From positions 2,343 through 66,342 of the forward strand of contig JANMHM010000012.1 in NCBI GenBank assembly GCA_031375155.1: a stretch of 64,000 nucleotides of DNA, in the 5' to 3' direction. The DNA is from Candidatus Altimarinota bacterium (GTDB taxonomy: Bacteria; Patescibacteriota; Gracilibacteria; BD1-5; UBA2023). The translations under genes were made by a program, and so were the position numbers. This document shows positions 158 to 56,057 of the stretch, in pieces (the stretch's first letter is position 1; every line of letters starts with the position of its first letter). Under the pieces are notes generated by a model. It saw only the letters and a list, made by a program, of their open reading frames with translations, did no database searches and was not told the origin of the DNA.

Positions 158-172
158 TCTCCTCTGACCGTT

Positions 173-216
173 CCTGTCATTTCGACCGAAGCAAAGCGGA
201 GCGGAGAAATCTTGCT
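173..216. repeat. Hairpin repeat unit CCTGTCATTTCGA...GAGAAATCTTGC (intergenic copy)
   Basis: It shares a 12-nt left end and a 12-nt right end with the copy at 18549-18578, and its left end with 27627 and 55708. Confidence 0.6.
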
Positions 217-250
217 CTGTTTTCTATTTTATATAATTTATTATATCCCC

Positions 251-1421: not shown

Positions 1422-2384
1422 ATGCTCCCAAAACTTCTCGATAGCCGACTCCGTACCATCCTCGGTGAGGAGTATGATGGTGTGATGACTGCTTTTTCTC
1501 TGGAACGAAAATGATCTTTTCGTATCAATATGCTCAACTGAGATGGAAGCGCTGTCATGAAAGAGCTCGCAGAAAAGTGAATTGCAGTCGAGAAATTCAC
1601 AGGATTCCTGCCTCCGCAGGAATGACGAGCGACTGAGGTATATCTTTTCGATAAGACTCACGAGTATGCTATGAAGGGAACACGAGCATTCTATGATGGA
1701 CTTATCTATCTCCAGTCACTCTCCTCACTCCTTCCAGCGCTCGTCCTCGATCCAAAATCAGGAGAATCTATCCTCGATGTGTGTGCGGCTCCCGGATCCA
1801 AGACGACACAGATCGCTATGATGATGGAAAATACAGGAAAAATCGTCGCCCTCGAGCAAAACCAGATCCGCTATGATAAACTCATACATAACTGTAAGCT
1901 CCAGTGAGCGACGATCGTGGGATGACAGAAGCTCGATGCACGACACTATTTCGATCGTACTCCAGAAGAGGTTTTTGATCGTATCCTCTTCGACGCTCCA
2001 TGTAGTGCTGAGGGCCGCATATCTCTGACGAATGAGAAGACCTATGGCTTCTGGTCGCTCGAGAACATACAGAAGAAAGCAGAACTCCAGTATGAGCTTC
2101 TCACCCTTGCATTCTCAGCATTGAAAAAATGAGGAACACTCGTCTACTCCACCTGTACCCTCGCTCCCGAGGAGAACGAGTGAGTCATCTCTGACTTCCT
2201 CGAGGAGACTCCGAGCGCTTCTCTCGAACCGATCGATATAGGACTTTCCGACAAGCCATGGTGGAAGCGCGGTATCCAGAAATTCGGAAAGACAGAGTAC
2301 TCTGAAGAACTCCAGAAAGCCGTACGCATACTGCCTGGAGCGGAGACGGAGGGGTTTTTCGTGGTGAAGATCGTGAAAAAATAG
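1422..2384 (+). CDS. RsmB/RsmF (NOL1/NOP2/Sun) family RNA m5C methyltransferase
   Basis: One frame from ATG 1422 to TAG 2382, with several in-frame TGA. Motifs DVCAAPGSKT, FDAPCSAEG and YSTCTLAPEENE. Confidence 0.8.
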
Positions 2385-2386
2385 AT

Positions 2387-2782
2387 ATGTTCCTTCGATT
2401 TATCACATCATTCATTGACGACGATGGAGAAAAGAAAATAGGAGTATTTCAGGCTATGTACTATTTGCGGAGTAAAGATGCTTTTCTTTATGGGGATGCA
2501 GAAAAAATCAATGAACTCAGAAACTGGTTTGATCAATATCTTGAACCACCGACACAATTTACTAAAAGAAGGACAAGCAAAGAGACTGGCACTGCAGTAT
2601 CATGGTATCATGACAGTGCAAAAGAACACATCGCCAAAATGTATGAGATGTCTCGTATCCTTGAACGATACGGCATCATCGTCTCAGTCGTGAAACGGGA
2701 AGATCCTGGATATATCGTCTATGAAGATGAGTATCAGGTAGCGGCTATACCGTATCGAGAAGATCGAGAGAAGGTTATATAA
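2387..2782 (+). CDS. Hypothetical protein
   Basis: Uninterrupted 131-aa ORF, tightly packed after the methyltransferase gene. Confidence 0.5.
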   Translation: MFLRFITSFIDDDGEKKIGVFQAMYYLRSKDAFLYGDAEKINELRNWFDQYLEPPTQFTKRRTSKETGTAVSWYHDSAKEHIAKMYEMSRILERYGIIVSVVKREDPGYIVYEDEYQVAAIPYREDREKVI

Positions 2783-2944
2783 ATCCCCTATTTTTATAAC
2801 AATTTAGGATCTAGACTAACACAAATTTTTCTATCCGAGATTCTCGAATATTTACAAAAATCATAAAAAATATATACTATGGAAGTTTTAATATAGAAGT
2901 TTTTTGAATACGTATTCTTTCTATATAGCTTACTATTTTTCTAT

Positions 2945-3796
2945 ATGCCTCGTCTTCTCATCACCTGTTTCCTCATCTCTGCAATTGGTATCGGGACTTT
3001 CTACTTTTTCACGCATACGACTATGACTTCTCCAGAATCTCTTACTCCCACTCTTTCACAGAGCGTTGCTCGGAATACCAGAACTATCGCTGTCAGTGGC
3101 TACGCCGAACTCCCCATCGAAAATGATACACTTCTCTCCTTTACCATCTACTATGGTGATAAAAAACAGGAAGATACTGGTCCTGCGAAGATCATAGAGC
3201 TCCAGAAAGCCCTCGCGCCATATTATCTTTCGGGAGTGACGCTCAGTATCGGAAAGATAGAGAAGCGTGGAGCGATACCGACATCGAGTACTCAAGTGTC
3301 AAAAAAAGAAGTGGTAGGAGATGTCGTATTCGAGCCAGAACCAAATACCATAGATACCCCAGATGGTACTATTCCGATAAGATGAGCTTGGTATCATGGG
3401 AATGGTGGTACTGGAGATCTGCAGTCAGTACAGGAGATTACCCTCCTCCTCCCTACAGAGTTCGATAGCGCAAAGAGAGGAGAAATAGAGGGAATTATAA
3501 AAAATATTTTTGCCTGAGCTGTCTCGACGGGAGTCTCTATCCGAGTCAAGAGTATCACGAGAAAAAACGATACTGTCAGTACGGCGCTTCGAGAAATAGC
3601 CCTTGCAGATGCTCGGAAAAATGCTGAAGGTATAGCACTTCTCCTCTGAGGAAGTCTAGGAGATGTCATCACATATGCTGAAGGAGGATCAGAGACAGCA
3701 GTATACCAGACGATAGCCTCACAGTATCCCAATCCTCTAGAACCACAGAAATACTTCCTCACAGTACAGATGGTCTATGAGCTCGCCTCAAAGTAG
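2945..3796 (+). CDS. Membrane-anchored SIMPL/DUF541-like protein
   Basis: N-terminal TM segment. ORF 2945-3385 continues through 3 TGA codons to TAG 3794. The C-terminal ...ARKNAEGIALLLGGSLGDVITYAEGG resembles the BP26/SIMPL family. Confidence 0.5.
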
Positions 3797-4541: not shown

Positions 4542-4575
4542 AAAAATATACCTCTAAATTTAGAGGTATATTTTT
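4542..4575. terminator. Bidirectional rho-independent terminator
   Basis: AAAAATATACCTCTAAATTTAGAGGTATATTTTT sits between convergent genes and overlaps the rsmA 3' end. Confidence 0.6.
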
Positions 4576-5471
4576 ATCCAATCCTCCTTCCTCACCGCCT
4601 CTGCCCGCACTTTCTCATCGTACCCACATTCTGTGAGCCATTTTTTCACTTCCTCGATATCGTAGTGACTTCACTTCAGATTGGAGAGGAGTGTTTTGCG
4701 TGGGTGGGTGAATGCTACTCTCCAGAGGGCGAGGAGTTTTTCTTCCCCGATTCGGTCACGAGATTTCTTCACCGAGAACTTCACCACGATAGAGTCCACT
4801 TTCGGTGCTGGGTCAAACGAAGCTCGCCCTACATACCGCACGATCTCGATATCTTTGCACGCGAGCTCCATAGCGAGGGAGAGATAGGAGTAGTGCGGTT
4901 TTTTCGCGCGTCAGGCAAGGATTTTTTCTCCTACTTCCTCCTGCATCATGATCACCATGGCTTCAGGTGGTGTAAGCCTCCTTTGTAAAGGAGGTGCCGA
5001 GGTACGAGGCGGAGGATTTTGCTCAGAAATCAAATCCCCCCTTCCCCCCTTTACAAAGGGGGCTTCGGGATACAAAAAATGAAATAATATAGGACTCGTG
5101 ATATAGTACGGGATATTCGCGATGACCGAGTAGTCGTCATATGGGGGAGTGAACTGGAGGATGTCCTCATGGTGGATGGCTATCGGAGTCGTCTTTACGA
5201 GATTATTTTCCTCTCCTTGTATCACTGGTGCGACTTCATCGCCCATATATCGTTCATCGAGGATCTCGATCATATCAGGATCGAGCTCGACGAGGTCGAG
5301 TGTGAGGGGATGATGCGAGAGGATATATTCGGTGAGTGCTCCATACCCAGGTCCGACTTCGATCACATGCCTACCTGCGAGCTCTATGGAGTGGGCGATA
5401 TCTCTGAGCGCCTCCTCGTCGATGAGGAAGTTTTGTCCGAGGGATTTTTTGGCTTTTATAGTTTTTTGCAT
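4560..5471 (-). CDS. rsmA: 16S rRNA (adenine1518/1519-N6)-dimethyltransferase RsmA/KsgA
   Basis: ORFs 4911-5471 and 4671-4871 are in one frame joined by TGA, with stop TAA at 4560. Motifs SLGQNFL, VIEVGPGYGALT, ANIPYYITSPIL and FDPAPKVDS. Confidence 0.9.
4968..5060. mobile_element. MITE-like palindromic element inserted in frame in rsmA
   Basis: 18-nt termini CCTCCTTTGTAAAGGAGG (4977-4994) and CCCCCTTTACAAAGGGGG (5045-5062) are inverted copies. Direct repeats GGCTTCAGG (4959) and GGCTTCGGG (5061) flank it, 102 nt apart. Confidence 0.6.
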
Positions 5472-6633: not shown

Positions 6634-6677
6634 CCTAAGACCTAAGACCTAAGACCTAAGACCTAAAACCTAAAACC
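6634..6677 (+). repeat. Tandem heptamer array (CCTAAGA)x4 (CCTAAAA)x2
   Basis: Read directly. It ends 7 nt before the rplD ATG. Confidence 0.9.
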
Positions 6678-6684
6678 TCTCTCT

Positions 6685-7311: not shown

Positions 7312-7400
7312 ATAGAACTTAGAACTTAGACTTTAGAACTTAGGAAAAACTCCGTTCAAATTCTCAGACTCTAAGCTCTAAACTCTAAATCCTAAACTCT
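7312..7400 (+). promoter_or_regulatory. Long imperfect intergenic hairpin (TTAGAAC arm versus CTAAAC arm)
   Basis: The left arm AGAACTTAGAACTTAGACTTTAGAACTTAGG pairs with CTAAGCTCTAAACTCTAAATCCTAAACTCT. I traced about 20 of 30 pairs by hand. Confidence 0.4.
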
Positions 7401-8870: not shown

Positions 8871-8975
8871 CCTAAGAACTTAGAACTGAGATTTTAGAAC
8901 TTAGGTACTCCTATGATTCGATCTCAGCTCTAAATCTCAAGTCCTAAGTCCCAAGATCTAAAACCTAAAATCTAC
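8871..8975 (+). promoter_or_regulatory. Long imperfect intergenic hairpin
   Basis: CCTAAGAACTTAGAACTGAGATTTTAGAACTTAGG faces CTCAGCTCTAAATCTCAAGTCCTAAGTCCCAAGATCTAAAACCTAAAATC. Confidence 0.35.
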
Positions 8976-17267: not shown

Positions 17268-17867
17268 ATGAAAATCTGCGTGTGGGATACAGAGACTACA
17301 GGATTCGCGACAAAATGAGGAGACCTCGCTCGACAGCCATATATCATCCAGTTTGCAGCGATCGAGTGAGAACTCGAGGGTGATGTATATCGTGAGATCG
17401 CACGTCACGATATCATGATCAAGCCATTTATATCGATCCCTTTCTGAGCTTCCCAAGTCAATGGTATCTATGATAAAGATGTCGCTGACTGTGAACCGAT
17501 GAATGTACATATAGATACCATACTACGTATACTCAATAATGCTGATCTCGTCTCAGGGCATAATATCGAATATGATGAAGATATCCTCTCCTACGAGCTC
17601 GCAAGACTCGGAAAAAGTGGAGAGTACTCTCCACAGAAGACGGTCTGTACTATGAGATCATCGACAGATTACTGTAAGCTCCAAGGGAGAGGATTTGCCT
17701 ATAAGCCGCCGAAACTTTCCGAGCTTCACAAACATCTTTTTTGAGAGTTTTTCGAATGAGCTCATGATGCTCTCATCGATGTAGAGGCGACTATGCGATG
17801 CTTCGTCGAGCTTGTCCGTAGATGAGTGATCGTCCCAGAGACATCGAATGTGATGCGATTGTTCTAG
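17268..17867 (+). CDS. DEDDh 3'-5' exonuclease (DnaQ/epsilon-like)
   Basis: Exo motifs VWDTETTG, GHNIEYDEDIL and HDALIDVEAT. Several in-frame TGA. TAG at 17865. Confidence 0.75.
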
Positions 17868-18997
17868 GAAAATTCTTCTATAATTCCACTTCCTATGACG
17901 ACGTCTTTATCGTAGATCACGCAGATCTGTCCTGGACTAATCGCGCGTTGGGGAACTGTAAACTGTAAACTGTAAATTATAGATTCAGCACCATTATCAT
18001 TTATAATTCATCATTTATAATTCATCATTACTTCCTGATCCTCCTGACGATACCGTATTTTCGCTCCATATCTTTTTCCTTCTTCTGGTAGAGTTCCTAC
18101 CCAATCTGTGAGAGTGCATTCACTTCCATAAAGCTCGAGCTCGTTCTCATTTCCTACGGTGATAGTGTTATTTTTCACATCCTTCGCTATTACGAAGAGT
18201 GCTGGTCATCATCCTACTTGTATACCCTTTCTTTGCCCGATAGTATAGGAATAGGCTCACTCGTGTTCCCCGATGACTATTCCAGATGTATCGAGGATGT
18301 TTCCTAGTTTTTTCGGGATCCTACGTTCGAGAAATTCTTTCATGCTCACTTTTCCGATAAAGCAGAGTCACTGTGAGTCTTTTCTTTCTGCATTGGGCAG
18401 TCATGCTTTTTTTGCTATGGCTCTGACTTCTGACTTGAGGAGGTGCCCTATCGGGAAGAGCGCATGTGAGATCTGGAATGGGGATAGTCGCGAGAGAAAG
18501 TATGATTGGTCTTTGTTTGGATCGACTCACTTCAGAAGTTGTATTTTTCTGTCATTTCGAGCTTGCGAGAAATCTTGCTCATGTATTCAGAGCAGGATGT
18601 CTCCTTTGTCGACATGACAGGTACGAGCATAGTGACCCATCGCGATACCATCATATCCGAGCGAGAGTGCTTCCTCGAGGAAGAGATCGAATTTTACGAG
18701 ATTGTTACAGAAAACGTCAGGATTGGGCGTCCTTCCCGCCTCATATTCACTATAGATGTATTCGATGATGCGTTTCTCATACTCTTCTCGATAATCGAAG
18801 GTGTAGAGAGGAAGATCGAGGTACTTTGCGACTTTTTTTGCCTCTTCGAGGTCTGCGAGCGTCGGACATGATTGTGGAAATTCCTCATCGAGATAATTGA
18901 TCATGAATCCACACGTCACTTCATGCCCATCTTGCTTGAGAAGATAGGCTGATACGGCAGAGTCTACTCATCATGAGAGTCATACGAGGATTTTCAT
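17864..18997 (-). CDS. mnmA: tRNA-specific 2-thiouridylase MnmA
   Basis: MKILVGLS-GG-VDSAV, with the PP-loop written TGA-TGA. Motifs [18 protein letters not shown] and [10 protein letters not shown]. One frame from 18997 down to TAG at 17864. Confidence 0.9.
18549..18578. repeat. Hairpin repeat unit CTGTCATTTCGA...GAGAAATCTTGC inside the mnmA coding frame
   Basis: Both 12-nt ends are identical to the intergenic copy at 173-216. It is translated as part of ...[19 protein letters not shown]... Confidence 0.6.
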
Positions 18998-18999
18998 AG

Positions 19000-19629
19000 T
19001 TATTTTTGGAGTGAGGCTATTATTTCTTCCCAATCCTTTACCCGATAAAGAAGTGGATGTTCGAAGTGTTCATTCCTATTCCAGGGCTTTTCCAGAAGTA
19101 TACAGGCGATACCATGTTCTATGAGATCGAGAGCATTTTCTATATGGTCATCGATCATCATACTGATCCCGAAACTTTTACAGATATCTGATTTTGGCCT
19201 CGCATCTTTCGAGAAATGATTCACGAAATATACATTTTTTATCGTAGGAAGGTGTGTATGAACCCAATGTATGGTACGAGGTTTTTTCCAATCTTGGTCA
19301 TCAGATCGAGCCGTGATAATAGACAGTTCTATCCCTCGTTTTTCGAGAAGTTGTACTCCATTCTTTGCGTTTTGCATGAGGGGGATACTCTGTGGATCGA
19401 GAGTTTTTTGCCCATAGGATTCCCAGACGAAACTGCTATCAGCTTCCGTGAGGGTCGGATCGAGCCCGAGAAAATCATACTTGGTGATATCTTCGAGAGA
19501 TCTGATACCGAGAAGCTTTCCGTGCGAGTGAGCCTCATCGAGCATCCCCATGACTGTACTCGCGAGCGTCTCATCGAGATCGAGACCGATATGGTTATGT
19601 TGTGCCCAGTCGAGGCGTGTGAGAGACAT
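19000..19629 (-). CDS. HAD-superfamily 5'(3')-nucleotidase-like hydrolase
   Basis: DLDETL (DxDxT) motif. The start could be 19629 or 19692. The rest of ORF 19000-19995 is antisense to fur and was rejected. Confidence 0.55.
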   Translation of the reverse strand: MSLTRLDWAQHNHIGLDLDETLASTVMGMLDEAHSHGKLLGIRSLEDITKYDFLGLDPTLTEADSSFVWESYGQKTLDPQSIPLMQNAKNGVQLLEKRGIELSIITARSDDQDWKKPRTIHWVHTHLPTIKNVYFVNHFSKDARPKSDICKSFGISMMIDDHIENALDLIEHGIACILLEKPWNRNEHFEHPLLYRVKDWEEIIASLQK

Positions 19630-27202: not shown

Positions 27203-27317
27203 TTATAGACAGATAAACTTGCATGAAATATGTAATTTATGATATAAAAAGTTTGATTTCTCGGAAAATCTGATATAATAATCTCGTCTTCCAAGATAAA
27301 GGAAATATATCTCCTTT

Positions 27318-27350
27318 GAAAAATCCCTCTGTCACGAGGGATTTTTCTTT
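27318..27350. terminator. Rho-independent terminator
   Basis: GAAAAATCCCTC-TGTCAC-GAGGGATTTTTCTTT. Confidence 0.6.
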
Positions 27351-27560
27351 GTTGATCTTAGCGTTTCCGCTTCACAACTCGCTCATAGATACCAGATATT
27401 TCTATCCGTATCAAGCGATGCTTCCAGTAGGGAAGTTCCAAGATAAACTTCTTCATAAGAAGAAATGGTTAGGAGATATATCTCCTTGCTCCTTCTGGAA
27501 GCAAGGAGCTTCGAAATTATATATTTTTCTTCGAAAAATCAACTTTACCAAAATACATCA

Positions 27561-27607
27561 TTCTGACCACAAAATTTGCTCACACTTTTCCCTTCAGGAA
27601 GCCATAG
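27561..27607 (+). repeat. 47-bp direct repeat, copy 1
   Basis: TTCTGACCACAAAATTTGCTCACACTTTTCCCTTCAGGAAGCCATAG, identical to 31718-31764. Confidence 0.9.
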
Positions 27608-27626
27608 CATACAAGTATCTAGTGTT

Positions 27627-27669
27627 CCTGTCATTTCGAGCGGAGATGATAAGTGAAGTCGAGAAATCC
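27627..27669. repeat. Hairpin repeat unit CCTGTCATTTCGAG...GTCGAGAAATCC
   Basis: Same termini family as the copies at 173, 18549 and 55708. Confidence 0.6.
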
Positions 27670-27731
27670 TTCTCTCAAAAAACTCCTCTTTCCTCGGTTT
27701 ATTATTTTAACTGCTCGAGTCAATAGTTAGT

Positions 27732-31517: not shown

Positions 31518-31717
31518 ACGTAAATATTTTTGTGCTCACGAAGAAAGAGATAGTGACTGCAGTGGTCACATTGCTTGTGGTTCAGGACGTGCAGAAGACG
31601 ATGATAATGACACTTAAAAATATTTATAAGAGAGAATATCAGTATATATTACATTTAAATTTTATTTGTCAATATTATTTTCACACTCTTCCGAGAAAGA
31701 CGTACAGAAAGCCACAC

Positions 31718-31764
31718 TTCTGACCACAAAATTTGCTCACACTTTTCCCTTCAGGAAGCCATAG
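31718..31764 (+). repeat. 47-bp direct repeat, copy 2
   Basis: Identical to 27561-27607. Confidence 0.9.
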
Positions 31765-32304: not shown

Positions 32305-32385
32305 AATTGTAAATGATAAATGTTAAATGATAAATTCATATACCATTCCTCATTTATAATTTATAACTTATAATTTATAATTTCT
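32305..32385 (+). promoter_or_regulatory. AT-rich imperfect intergenic hairpin/repeat region
   Basis: TGTAAATGATAAATGTTAAATGATAAAT faces ATTTATAATTTATAACTTATAATTTATAATTT. Confidence 0.3.
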
Positions 32386-55205: not shown

Positions 55206-56057
55206 CTATGATTTCTGTACAGAGTACATCCACTCCTCATTCCCCGCCTCCCCAATGACACTCGATTTCTCTTTTTGCAAAATTTCGCAATTATGTAGTT
55301 CGAGAAAATCTTCCCACTCTTTTTGCCTTTTCTGTACGATTTTCTCATTTTTCACGACTCAGGTTTTCCGGAGATGTTCTCGTCCGACCTCGAACTGCGG
55401 TTTCCAGAGAAGGATGATATGAGTCTGAGTATCTGCGAATCTCAGTATGCTTGGCAAGATTCCCTGGAGTGATATAAATGAAGCATCACAGACGATGATG
55501 TCGTAGTGTGTACTGCTCTCGAACTCTCGTATATCAGTCTGCTCATAGCTGGTAACTCGAATATCGTTTCTGATGCTTTCATGAAGTTGGGCGGTTCCTA
55601 CATCCACTGCATCTACATGACTCGCTCATCGATCCAGGAGGACCTGCGTGAATCATCCTGTCGACGATCCGACATCGAGACAATACATTCATTCGATCTG
55701 CAATGATTCCTGTCATTTCGAAGTATGAGAAAGCTTCCTCTGTGTACCTTCTAGCAAGATGTCTTCATCCTTCGTAGTACTACGGAGAACAGGTCCTATC
55801 ATCGATACGACAGGCACTAATAATTCTCATTGTTGAATTCACAATTGCTCAAGAAATCCATCGAGCTTCCCTGCACTGCGAGAGACCCAATGAAGACTCT
55901 TGTCTTCAATTAAATTCACAATATCTGATTCACTCACACCGAACGATACTTTAGTGATATTGTTTCCGTTCACTTCTGCGAGTCCAGATTCGATATATTG
56001 CTTCGCTTTGTTTCTTGTGAAGCCATATTTCTCACTAATGAAGAGATCAAGTCGCAT
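55206..56057 (-). CDS. tlyA: TlyA-family rRNA 2'-O-methyltransferase with an S4 domain
   Basis: ORFs 55839-56057 and 55359-55607 are in one frame. Motifs WVSRSAGKL, LDVGSSTGGFTQVLLDRGA and KPQFEVG. TAG at 55206. Confidence 0.85.
55708..55815. mobile_element. 108-bp MITE-like element inserted in frame in tlyA
   Basis: Termini CCTGTCATTTCGA (55708) and TCGATACGACAGG (55803-55815) are inverted repeats (11 of 13 match). TCATT pentamers at 55689 and 55827 lie 138 nt (46 codons) apart. Confidence 0.6.

Follow-up and report, generated by a model that had tools for sequence, protein, structure and literature searches.

A probable in-frame passenger in TlyA: a decayed inverted pair of tagged hairpin repeats in a Gracilibacteria-type genome

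Locus and genetic code

A 64-kb window of a Gracilibacteria-type genome (the window being the whole stretch of DNA analysed, with 1-based coordinates) carries tlyA on its minus strand, and within this gene, between the parts encoding the S4 domain and the S-adenosylmethionine (SAM)-binding loop, lies extra DNA that opens and closes with copies of a short tagged hairpin repeat (Table 1). The window required genetic code 25/4, under which long open reading frames (ORFs) totalled 40,698 amino acids (aa), versus 9,882 aa under table 11, where the tlyA region falls apart into short ORFs. The SAM-binding motif GSSTG*FT reads GSSTGGFT once TGA is sense, and TGA was therefore assigned to glycine (code 25). 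All conserved TlyA residues and motifs are retained in the protein, the Pfam domains S4 and FtsJ cover residues 1–47 and 108–280, and the best-named homologs are TlyA proteins from Candidatus Gracilibacteria. A set of 120 homologs was used for comparison, including P0001, which is identical to the window protein. A first-pass annotation, made from the DNA alone, had placed an in-frame repeat element between the S4 domain and the SAM-binding loop, and both Pfam and the alignments agree with this placement.

Table 1. Coordinates of tlyA, its insert and related repeat copies in the window
Feature	Position	Strand	Description or basis
tlyA coding sequence	55206..56057	-	283 aa under code 25, uninterrupted
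tlyA in-frame TGA codons (Gly), n = 7	residues 73, 77, 115, 123, 135, 144, 233		
In-frame surplus, 120 nt, 40 codons, LLVPVVSMIGPVLRSTTKDEDILLEGTQRKLSHTSKGQES	about 55704..55823	-	alignment with insert-free ortholog L001
Left hairpin unit, tag outward, TTCC-TGTC-ATTTC-GAAGTATGA-GAAAG-CTTCCTC	55707..55740	+	15-mer identity, profile match
Right hairpin unit, inverted, AGTGCC-TGTC-GTATC-GAT-GATAG-GACC (minus-strand reading)	55792..55818	-	11/13 inverted match
Palindrome CGTAGTACTACG (12 nt, perfect) in spacer separating the units	55773..55784		
AATGATTC	55702..55709	+	imperfect direct repeat (7/8) of AATAATTC at 55819-55826
Solo unit	171..217	+	about 15 nt past stop codon of upstream gene; profile E = 1.5e-7
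Solo unit	27625..27674	+	between convergent genes or in last codons of ORF 27223-27726; profile E = 4.1e-6
Sister copy, 76-nt inverted dimer	18546..18621	+	in frame within mnmA; profile E = 3.5e-6
mnmA gene	17864-19033	-	sister dimer contributes a 26-residue peptide

Size, borders and parts of the insert

Aligned with Mycobacterium tuberculosis TlyA (7s0s_B), the window protein matched in two blocks, query residues 13–74 and 119–240, both of which meet chain residue 95, leaving 44 residues (75–118) without a counterpart. The spacing from SR.A.KL to CLD was 60 residues in window TlyA versus 15–20 in 102 of the 120 homologs, and a spacing of 60 recurred only in P0001. When its DNA and codons were aligned with those of the nearest ortholog without an insert (P0003 on locus L001, about 80% nucleotide identity across the flanking gene parts), window tlyA showed a net excess of 120 nt (40 codons), and not the 108 bp and 45 residues first proposed; the borders are uncertain by about 6 nt because GAATTA/GAATCA occurs on both sides.

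The extra DNA opens with TTCCTGTCATTTCGA and closes with an inverted copy of CCTGTCATTTCGA. The termini, CCTGTCATTTCGA at 55709–55721 and TCGATACGACAGG at 55802–55814, match as inverted repeats at 11 of 13 positions, the same count as in the first-pass annotation, which had the sequences right and the positions one base off. We estimate a probability of about 0.002 that a given copy would by chance have an inverted match, with at most two mismatches, no more than about 120 nt away. The left terminus belongs to a unit with a preserved 5′ half and a degenerate closing stem and loop, and the copies at 171 and 27625 repeat its 15-mer exactly; the right unit is heavily decayed, keeping only TGTC and a 4-bp remnant. 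The palindrome noted earlier inside the element was found again in the spacer (Table 1), and the spacers of dimers of repetitive extragenic palindromes (REPs) are described as structured by Di Nocera et al. 2013 (PMC3733652). The extra 120 nt are a decayed inverted pair of tagged hairpin units: what had been termed terminal inverted repeats are indeed inverted, but they are two copies of a unit also found alone, arranged as a dimer of the type seen in REPs and in the NTS repeats of Neisseria.

Copies elsewhere in the window

Three further copies of the left terminus had been reported at 173, 18549 and 27627, and all three stand, the middle one shifting to 18548. The terminus is exact at 173, 27627 and 55709 and has one mismatch at 18548, and the 15-mer likewise is identical at three window sites and differs at one position in the fourth. 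Allowing at most two mismatches, the 13-mer matched 11 times in the window against 2.39 expected, a number reached by 0 of 100 shuffles. The arrangement TTCCTGTCATTTCGA...GAGAAATC(T/C)T.CTC makes up the lone units at 171–217 and 27625–27674 and the left arm of the dimer at 18546–18621, giving a window total of two dimers (tlyA, mnmA) and two singletons. The additional copies thus include one that itself bears inverted repeats, in mnmA; folded as single-stranded DNA (ssDNA), this dimer gave -16.6 kcal/mol (z = -4.0). When only units of other phyla, described below, went into a profile, it matched exactly four places in the window, 172–213, 18548–18576, 27626–27670 and 55708–55722, the last being the left tlyA unit (E = 0.0045).

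The hairpin unit across bacterial phyla

One genome per species was scanned with the pattern CTGTCATTTCGA-N(4–30)-GAGAAATC, which returned at least 120 loci, where we estimate only about 30 chance matches for the whole collection. The unit occurs singly and paired across many bacterial phyla; what had been read as a family signature is therefore shared by the window copies, as claimed, but is not specific to this genome. The results in this paragraph hold among the matches listed, which came from Bacteroidota, Chloroflexota, Nitrospirota, Desulfobacterota/delta-proteobacteria, Clostridia, Planctomycetota, Patescibacteria and one Methanosarcinales metagenome-assembled genome (MAG). The consensus is TGTC-ATTTC-GA-[N C-GNA-G N']-GA-GAAAT-C, consisting of an unpaired TGTC tag, a 5-bp stem (ATTTC/GAAAT), a tandem GA/GA, a small variable stem-loop and a C after the stem. 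Of 56 units from other phyla, 19 had GC, 15 AT and 15 CG as their first inner pair, and 50 were paired at this position versus 41% expected; since this free inner pair covaries, the unit is a real hairpin. An inverted tag lay at most 150 nt downstream of 68 of 121 units, versus 18 of 121 in the upstream control, and dimers with tags outward were the usual arrangement in other genomes. Pairs spanned about 80–125 nt with a median dimer of 99 nt, so the tlyA element, at about 110 nt, is of canonical dimer size.

The core of many units, GCGAAGC, is a classic, very stable DNA mini-hairpin, and such a core would fit action as single-stranded DNA. Within the phylum, a dimer with the arms of the mnmA copy was found in a Gracilibacteria MAG (L063) just past the stop codon of a 451-aa ORF, which is not mnmA as judged from part of its sequence; because this dimer adjoins a different gene, the family is dispersed within the phylum. 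In a Dehalococcoidia locus (L106), TGTCATTTCGAGC...GAGAAATC units abut both ends of a 98-aa single-domain GIY-YIG ORF (PF01541, E = 4.7e-16), the product of which has a UPF0213 protein as its best PDB relative and received no name in an NCBIfam search. The same locus (MAG OZ244716.1) also holds, at 1650–3100, a tandem array of composite units of about 175 bp, each combining a hairpin of the TGTCATTTCGAGC type with a CGTCATTCCGACCGCAGCGGAGGAATC hairpin on the opposite strand; the array ends at the 98-aa GIY-YIG gene, which is flanked by the TGTCATTTCGAGC type.

Presence and absence in relatives

Among the TlyA homologs, the nearest relative (P0003/L001) and P0006 (243 aa) are insert-free, whereas P0002, P0004 and P0005 carry a different element in the same loop (SLSRHSRGGSNP...SLRSSRGQE), and further repeats of the class occupy this loop in P0007, P0014, P0114 and P0113, the last with the NTS-type peptide IPAYAGMT. 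Altogether, 10 of the 120 homologs have one or another repeat of the class in this loop, always in frame. At loci L125 and L126, the tlyA genes share 92–98% nucleotide identity and differ by presence or absence of a related element. On these comparisons, with an insert-free nearest relative, a polymorphic pair and varied repeats at one site, the extra DNA in window tlyA is an insertion and not ancestral sequence. Its own segment appears confined to the lineage, as the first-pass annotation required of its reading, along with the further copies in the genome: only P0001 among the 120 homologs has it, and a search of 1.84 billion representative proteins returned 0. The 3′ junction falls at the same nucleotide in the window insert and in that of L002 (GACAGGAA|yCATT), which could reflect site preference or shared ancestry of the junction.

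The mnmA insertion site is likewise recurrent. Among homologs P0121–P0240, about 45 of 113 Gracilibacteria sequences have 10–60 residues inserted in the GHYAR..LLKG loop of MnmA; these inserts represent at least five repeat families, and the close relatives P0124 and P0125 have no insert. One MnmA homolog, P0162 (490 aa), has a 160-residue in-frame insert at this loop, in which a DUF559/Vsr-like endonuclease domain (PF04480) lies between the repeat-type peptides PSPKIGEAGRGV and PPILGGDW. The host gene thus seems to contain, in frame, a nuclease gene together with the repeats that border it. TlyA also has a second variable site, after DIR(D/E)F at about residue 180, where about 17 of 120 homologs (leaving out two apparent pattern mis-anchorings) have 10–45 extra residues, some of them repeat-like peptides; window TlyA has none there.

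Protein fold and reading frame

An AlphaFold model was made from P0001, the same protein, with W at the TGA codons. The mean predicted local distance difference test (pLDDT) score was 86, with folded parts above 90, and the model superposed on known TlyA structures (7s0s_B, template-modelling score 0.72/0.76; 5ks2, root-mean-square deviation 1.7 Å). The insert is predicted to be a low-confidence coil (residues 81–120, pLDDT 45–62) between helix 60–80 and strand 125–129, which is followed by the SAM-binding loop, and thus lies in the loop joining the first methyltransferase-domain helix to strand beta-1. The insertion point is about 20 residues past the segment HWVS, which we take to correspond to the linker called RAWV in PDB entries 5ks2 and 5kyg, and the insert therefore falls within the N-terminal portion of the methyltransferase domain and not in the actual linker between the domains.

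In the frame used, TCG AAA TGA CAG GAA of the conserved terminus becomes S K G Q E, and this frame is open only because TGA codes for glycine. Under code 11, 0 of 6 frames of the tlyA insert were open, versus 2 of 6 under code 25; the corresponding numbers were three and six for the mnmA copy, and means of 1.68 and 3.75 for 68 dimers from other phyla (among the matches listed). A shuffled 120-mer from the window was stop-free in a given frame in 19% of cases under code 25 and 10% under code 11. The insert is probably translated as a floppy surface loop of 40 residues, and reassignment of TGA would favour insertions of this kind.

Comparison with known repeat systems

The tagged REPs described by Di Nocera et al. 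(PMC3733652) are among the nearest comparisons. Their tag is CGTC, sometimes TGTC or CCTC, their stems start with AT and their tails are short; most form inverted dimers with spacers of 20–100 bp, singletons lie near gene 3′ ends, some copies lie within ORFs, and no transposase is associated. The window copies resemble them in having TGTC before the stem in four copies and in both arms of two dimers, ATTTC...GAAAT followed by C(T/C)T at 171, 18546 and 27625 (GAAAG-C in the tlyA copy), inverted dimers beside two singletons, one of these about 15 nt past a stop codon. They seem to differ in stem layout: CGTC-1 to CGTC-4 are described with an 8–9-bp stem and a 4–5-nt loop, whereas canonical units of the window type have 5 bp, GA/GA and 2 bp (nine stem positions counting GA/GA) around a 3-nt loop, and the window copies themselves have longer, irregular loops compared with canonical units. 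Patescibacteria do not appear among the phyla listed for these REPs.

In the same paper, Rickettsia conorii RPE-6 and RPE-4 are equated with CGTC-1 and CGTC-4, and any link of the window units to the Rickettsia palindromic elements (RPE; Ogata et al. 2000, as cited in PMC10969869) rests on this equation. Intragenic Rickettsia dimers are described there as encoding SFLRKQES...DSRFRGND, with RNA-modifying methyltransferases among their targets (PMC3733652). As in Rickettsia, short palindromic repeats are found here in frame in housekeeping genes and would be read through as peptide, dimers encode 20–40 residues, enzymes modifying rRNA or tRNA are among the targets, the peptide has a similar flavour, and the insertion position appears fold-compatible, being a predicted low-confidence coil in TlyA. 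Unlike RPE, which have an alphaproteobacterial host, the window repeats belong to a Patescibacteria/Gracilibacteria-type host with code 25, their stem is ATTTC...GAAAT with a GA/GA step, and their frame holds TGA and is closed under the standard code.

The 94-aa GIY-YIG nuclease SsnA binds and cleaves Neisseria NTS (CGTCATTCCCGCG...GCGGGAATC) in single-stranded form only, and the GTC ahead of the stem and the C right after it are critical; ssn homologs are typically flanked by such motifs, and NTS and Ssn influence how transforming DNA is integrated (Chenal et al. 2025, PMC11893778). The window units share with NTS and the related SRM motifs the layout GTC - AT...stem-loop...AT - C, an unpaired tag that gives orientation, and numerous dispersed copies, and the Dehalococcoidia motif subtype appears to flank its GIY-YIG gene in the SRM-ssn-SRM layout. 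REPINs, with their RAYT transposases, are also comparable in their singlet hairpins, inverted doublets forming long hairpins, high copy number and likely action on ssDNA; they differ in being defined by a GTAG tag, where every copy here has TGTC, in the RAYT gene, which is not associated here, and in being almost exclusively extragenic. By analogy of architecture, the units would be placed with CGTC/TGTC-tagged REPs, including Rickettsia RPE-4/RPE-6 and Neisseria NTS, and the insert is best filed as a new case of intragenic CGTC/TGTC-tagged REP (RPE-like) repeats. No relevant report of such repeats in Gracilibacteria or Absconditabacteria was found in the literature searched.

Origin of the insert

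The extra DNA in tlyA, a decayed dimer, tags outward, of the tagged hairpin repeat, is probably carried by TlyA as an in-frame passenger. Units of this type, small selfish or host-associated DNA repeats, may plausibly be spread by an Ssn-type GIY-YIG nuclease or by recombination at such sites, and a dimer would have landed in the tlyA loop or been imported with a recombined allele. With a length that is a multiple of three, no TAA or TAG in the frame and TGA read as glycine, the insert would simply be translated, forming a 40-residue disordered surface loop with which TlyA may remain functional; it is most likely a tolerated passenger and not an adaptation, and its hairpins would have decayed afterwards.

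Several observations weigh against this account. The tlyA element folds no better than its shuffles (z = -0.5 and -0.9), and the profile from other phyla matches only the 5′ half of its left unit; no second copy of the tlyA-type dimer was found. The stem of the unit is not literally the 8–9 bp of CGTC-1 to CGTC-4, as these are described in the text of their source, and the SRM pattern HGTCWYN(0-2)YYVSBRHN(0-5)WNVSBRGN(0-2)RNCYNB gave 0 matches in the window and none on the consensus unit, the canonical NTS matching as a positive control. In a regex motif scan, which can miss weak homologs, neither the window nor the small set of Gracilibacteria loci examined showed a gene for a GIY-YIG or any other nuclease. 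A phmmer search of the 1.84 billion representatives with the 37-aa TGA-free part of the insert returned 0 matches, which means only that the insert peptide is not widespread, and a word-indexed search with the 43-aa insert peptide gave no match, missing the identical P0001 as well. At L125/L126, 99 nt of element stand in place of 24 native nt, with no clean addition, and between L002 and L125 identity is 95% over the element and the 3′ 450 nt, against only 71% over the 5′ 195 nt; this contrast indicates a breakpoint at or near the element and alleles moved by recombination, so that arrival by recombination instead of transposition is quite possible. The 24 native nt also contain an 11-nt direct repeat (GAATTACGAAT). 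A function of the tlyA copy as a hairpin or RNA structure was ruled out by the folding result, and Rfam gave no match at gathering thresholds across the whole window and none at E <= 1 for the tlyA and mnmA elements, leaving no described RNA family that fits.

On the strength of the L002/L125 contrast, the insert could have arrived as part of a recombined tlyA allele, gained through transformation or exchanged by homologous recombination, the hairpins marking or promoting exchange boundaries as proposed for Neisseria dRS3/NTS. Replacement of native sequence in the filled alleles, the identical position of the 3′ junctions in the window and L002, and the effect of NTS and Ssn on integration of transforming DNA (PMC11893778) all favour such an import, but the window insert is unlike that of L002/L125 in length and sequence, and its terminus is exact over 15 nt with copies in the same genome, pointing to a local source. 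We regard import as unlikely, though a serious contender, and it would explain the spread and not the origin of the first insertion, complementing the passenger dimer. A classical miniature inverted-repeat transposable element, with 13-nt terminal inverted repeats served by the DDE-type transposase of a full-length insertion sequence and TCATT as target duplication, would fit the inverted termini, the typical size of about 110 nt and the several copies. The two TCATT pentamers are present at 55689 and 55827, 138 nt apart, as first noted; their role as a target-site duplication is ruled out by position, however, as they do not adjoin the termini and the left copy lies about 14 nt outside the insert, within conserved native codons. 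No convincing duplication was seen at any junction examined; the sole candidate, the AATGATTC/AATAATTC pair, overlaps the TTCC lead-in of the family itself. Half-elements stand alone at 171 and 27625 and in many phyla, as expected of REP-type units, the supposed terminal repeat is itself a tag with a covarying hairpin, and a motif scan found no partner transposase in the window, leaving such an element improbable.

Little credence is given, to about the same degree, to the 40 residues being a lineage-specific adaptation that lengthens TlyA, such as an additional contact with the ribosome, with the repeat origin incidental or exapted. The frame has been kept open though the hairpins decayed, and the same loop is extended in other homologs, as such an extension would have it, but the insert is predicted to be disordered and is unique to one species-level lineage, and other lineages have inserts of unrelated sequence, derived from several repeat families, a pattern that fits a permissive site and not a selected function. 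It is very improbable indeed that tlyA is a pseudogene or that the segment is an intervening sequence, akin to an intron or intein, taken out before translation. Nothing supports this directly, although it would account for tolerance of a 120-nt insertion; against it, the ORF is intact under code 25 with conserved motifs all present, Rfam was silent even at E <= 1, and inserts are in frame in every lineage seen, where a chance 120-mer would be open in only 19% of cases per frame. Group I and II introns and inteins are also far longer than 120 nt.

A wider extension of the passenger dimer is put forward tentatively. The TGA in the tag complement, ATGACAG, would be the only conserved stop of the class; its loss with code 25 roughly doubles the stop-free frames, and several repeat families could for this reason have colonised housekeeping genes widely and at recurrent hot spots, where the intragenic hairpins may remain sites of Ssn-type nuclease action or recombination. 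In that event, gene mosaics would break at intragenic hairpins, and Gracilibacteria would repeat the Rickettsia case independently and far more broadly, as a second instance and one with a mechanistic tie to genetic-code change.

Intragenic selfish palindromes, for which Rickettsia is the classic case and intragenic REPs are reported from several other bacteria, would with the tlyA insert extend to a very different, reduced-genome lineage, and the insert may belong with repeats that have their own ssDNA nuclease, Ssn, first characterised in 2025. It also suggests that stop-codon reassignment and the tolerance of such insertions are linked in a simple way that can be tested. Recurrent insertion sites map permissive loops in TlyA and MnmA, and genes of this kind will be mishandled by annotators and aligners.

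Other repeats in the window

A different palindromic family is present in rsmA (4560–5471, minus strand), which has an in-frame insert at 4974–5057 (TTTGTAAAGGGGGGAAGGGGGGAT...CCTCCTTTACAAAGG, peptide FVKGGRGDLISEQNPPPRTSAPPLQRRL), so that at least two repeat families lie within housekeeping genes of the window. Short intergenic spacers hold tandem arrays of heptamers, for example CCTAAGA x 6.4, at 6634–6678, 7313–7343, 7368–7400, 8929–8974, 17954–18029 and 32310–32383, several of them directly upstream of start codons in a ribosomal-protein gene cluster. A 62-nt direct repeat (89% identity) occurs at 27546–27607, just ahead of the solo unit at 27625, and at 31703–31764, in the spacer upstream of an infA-like gene.

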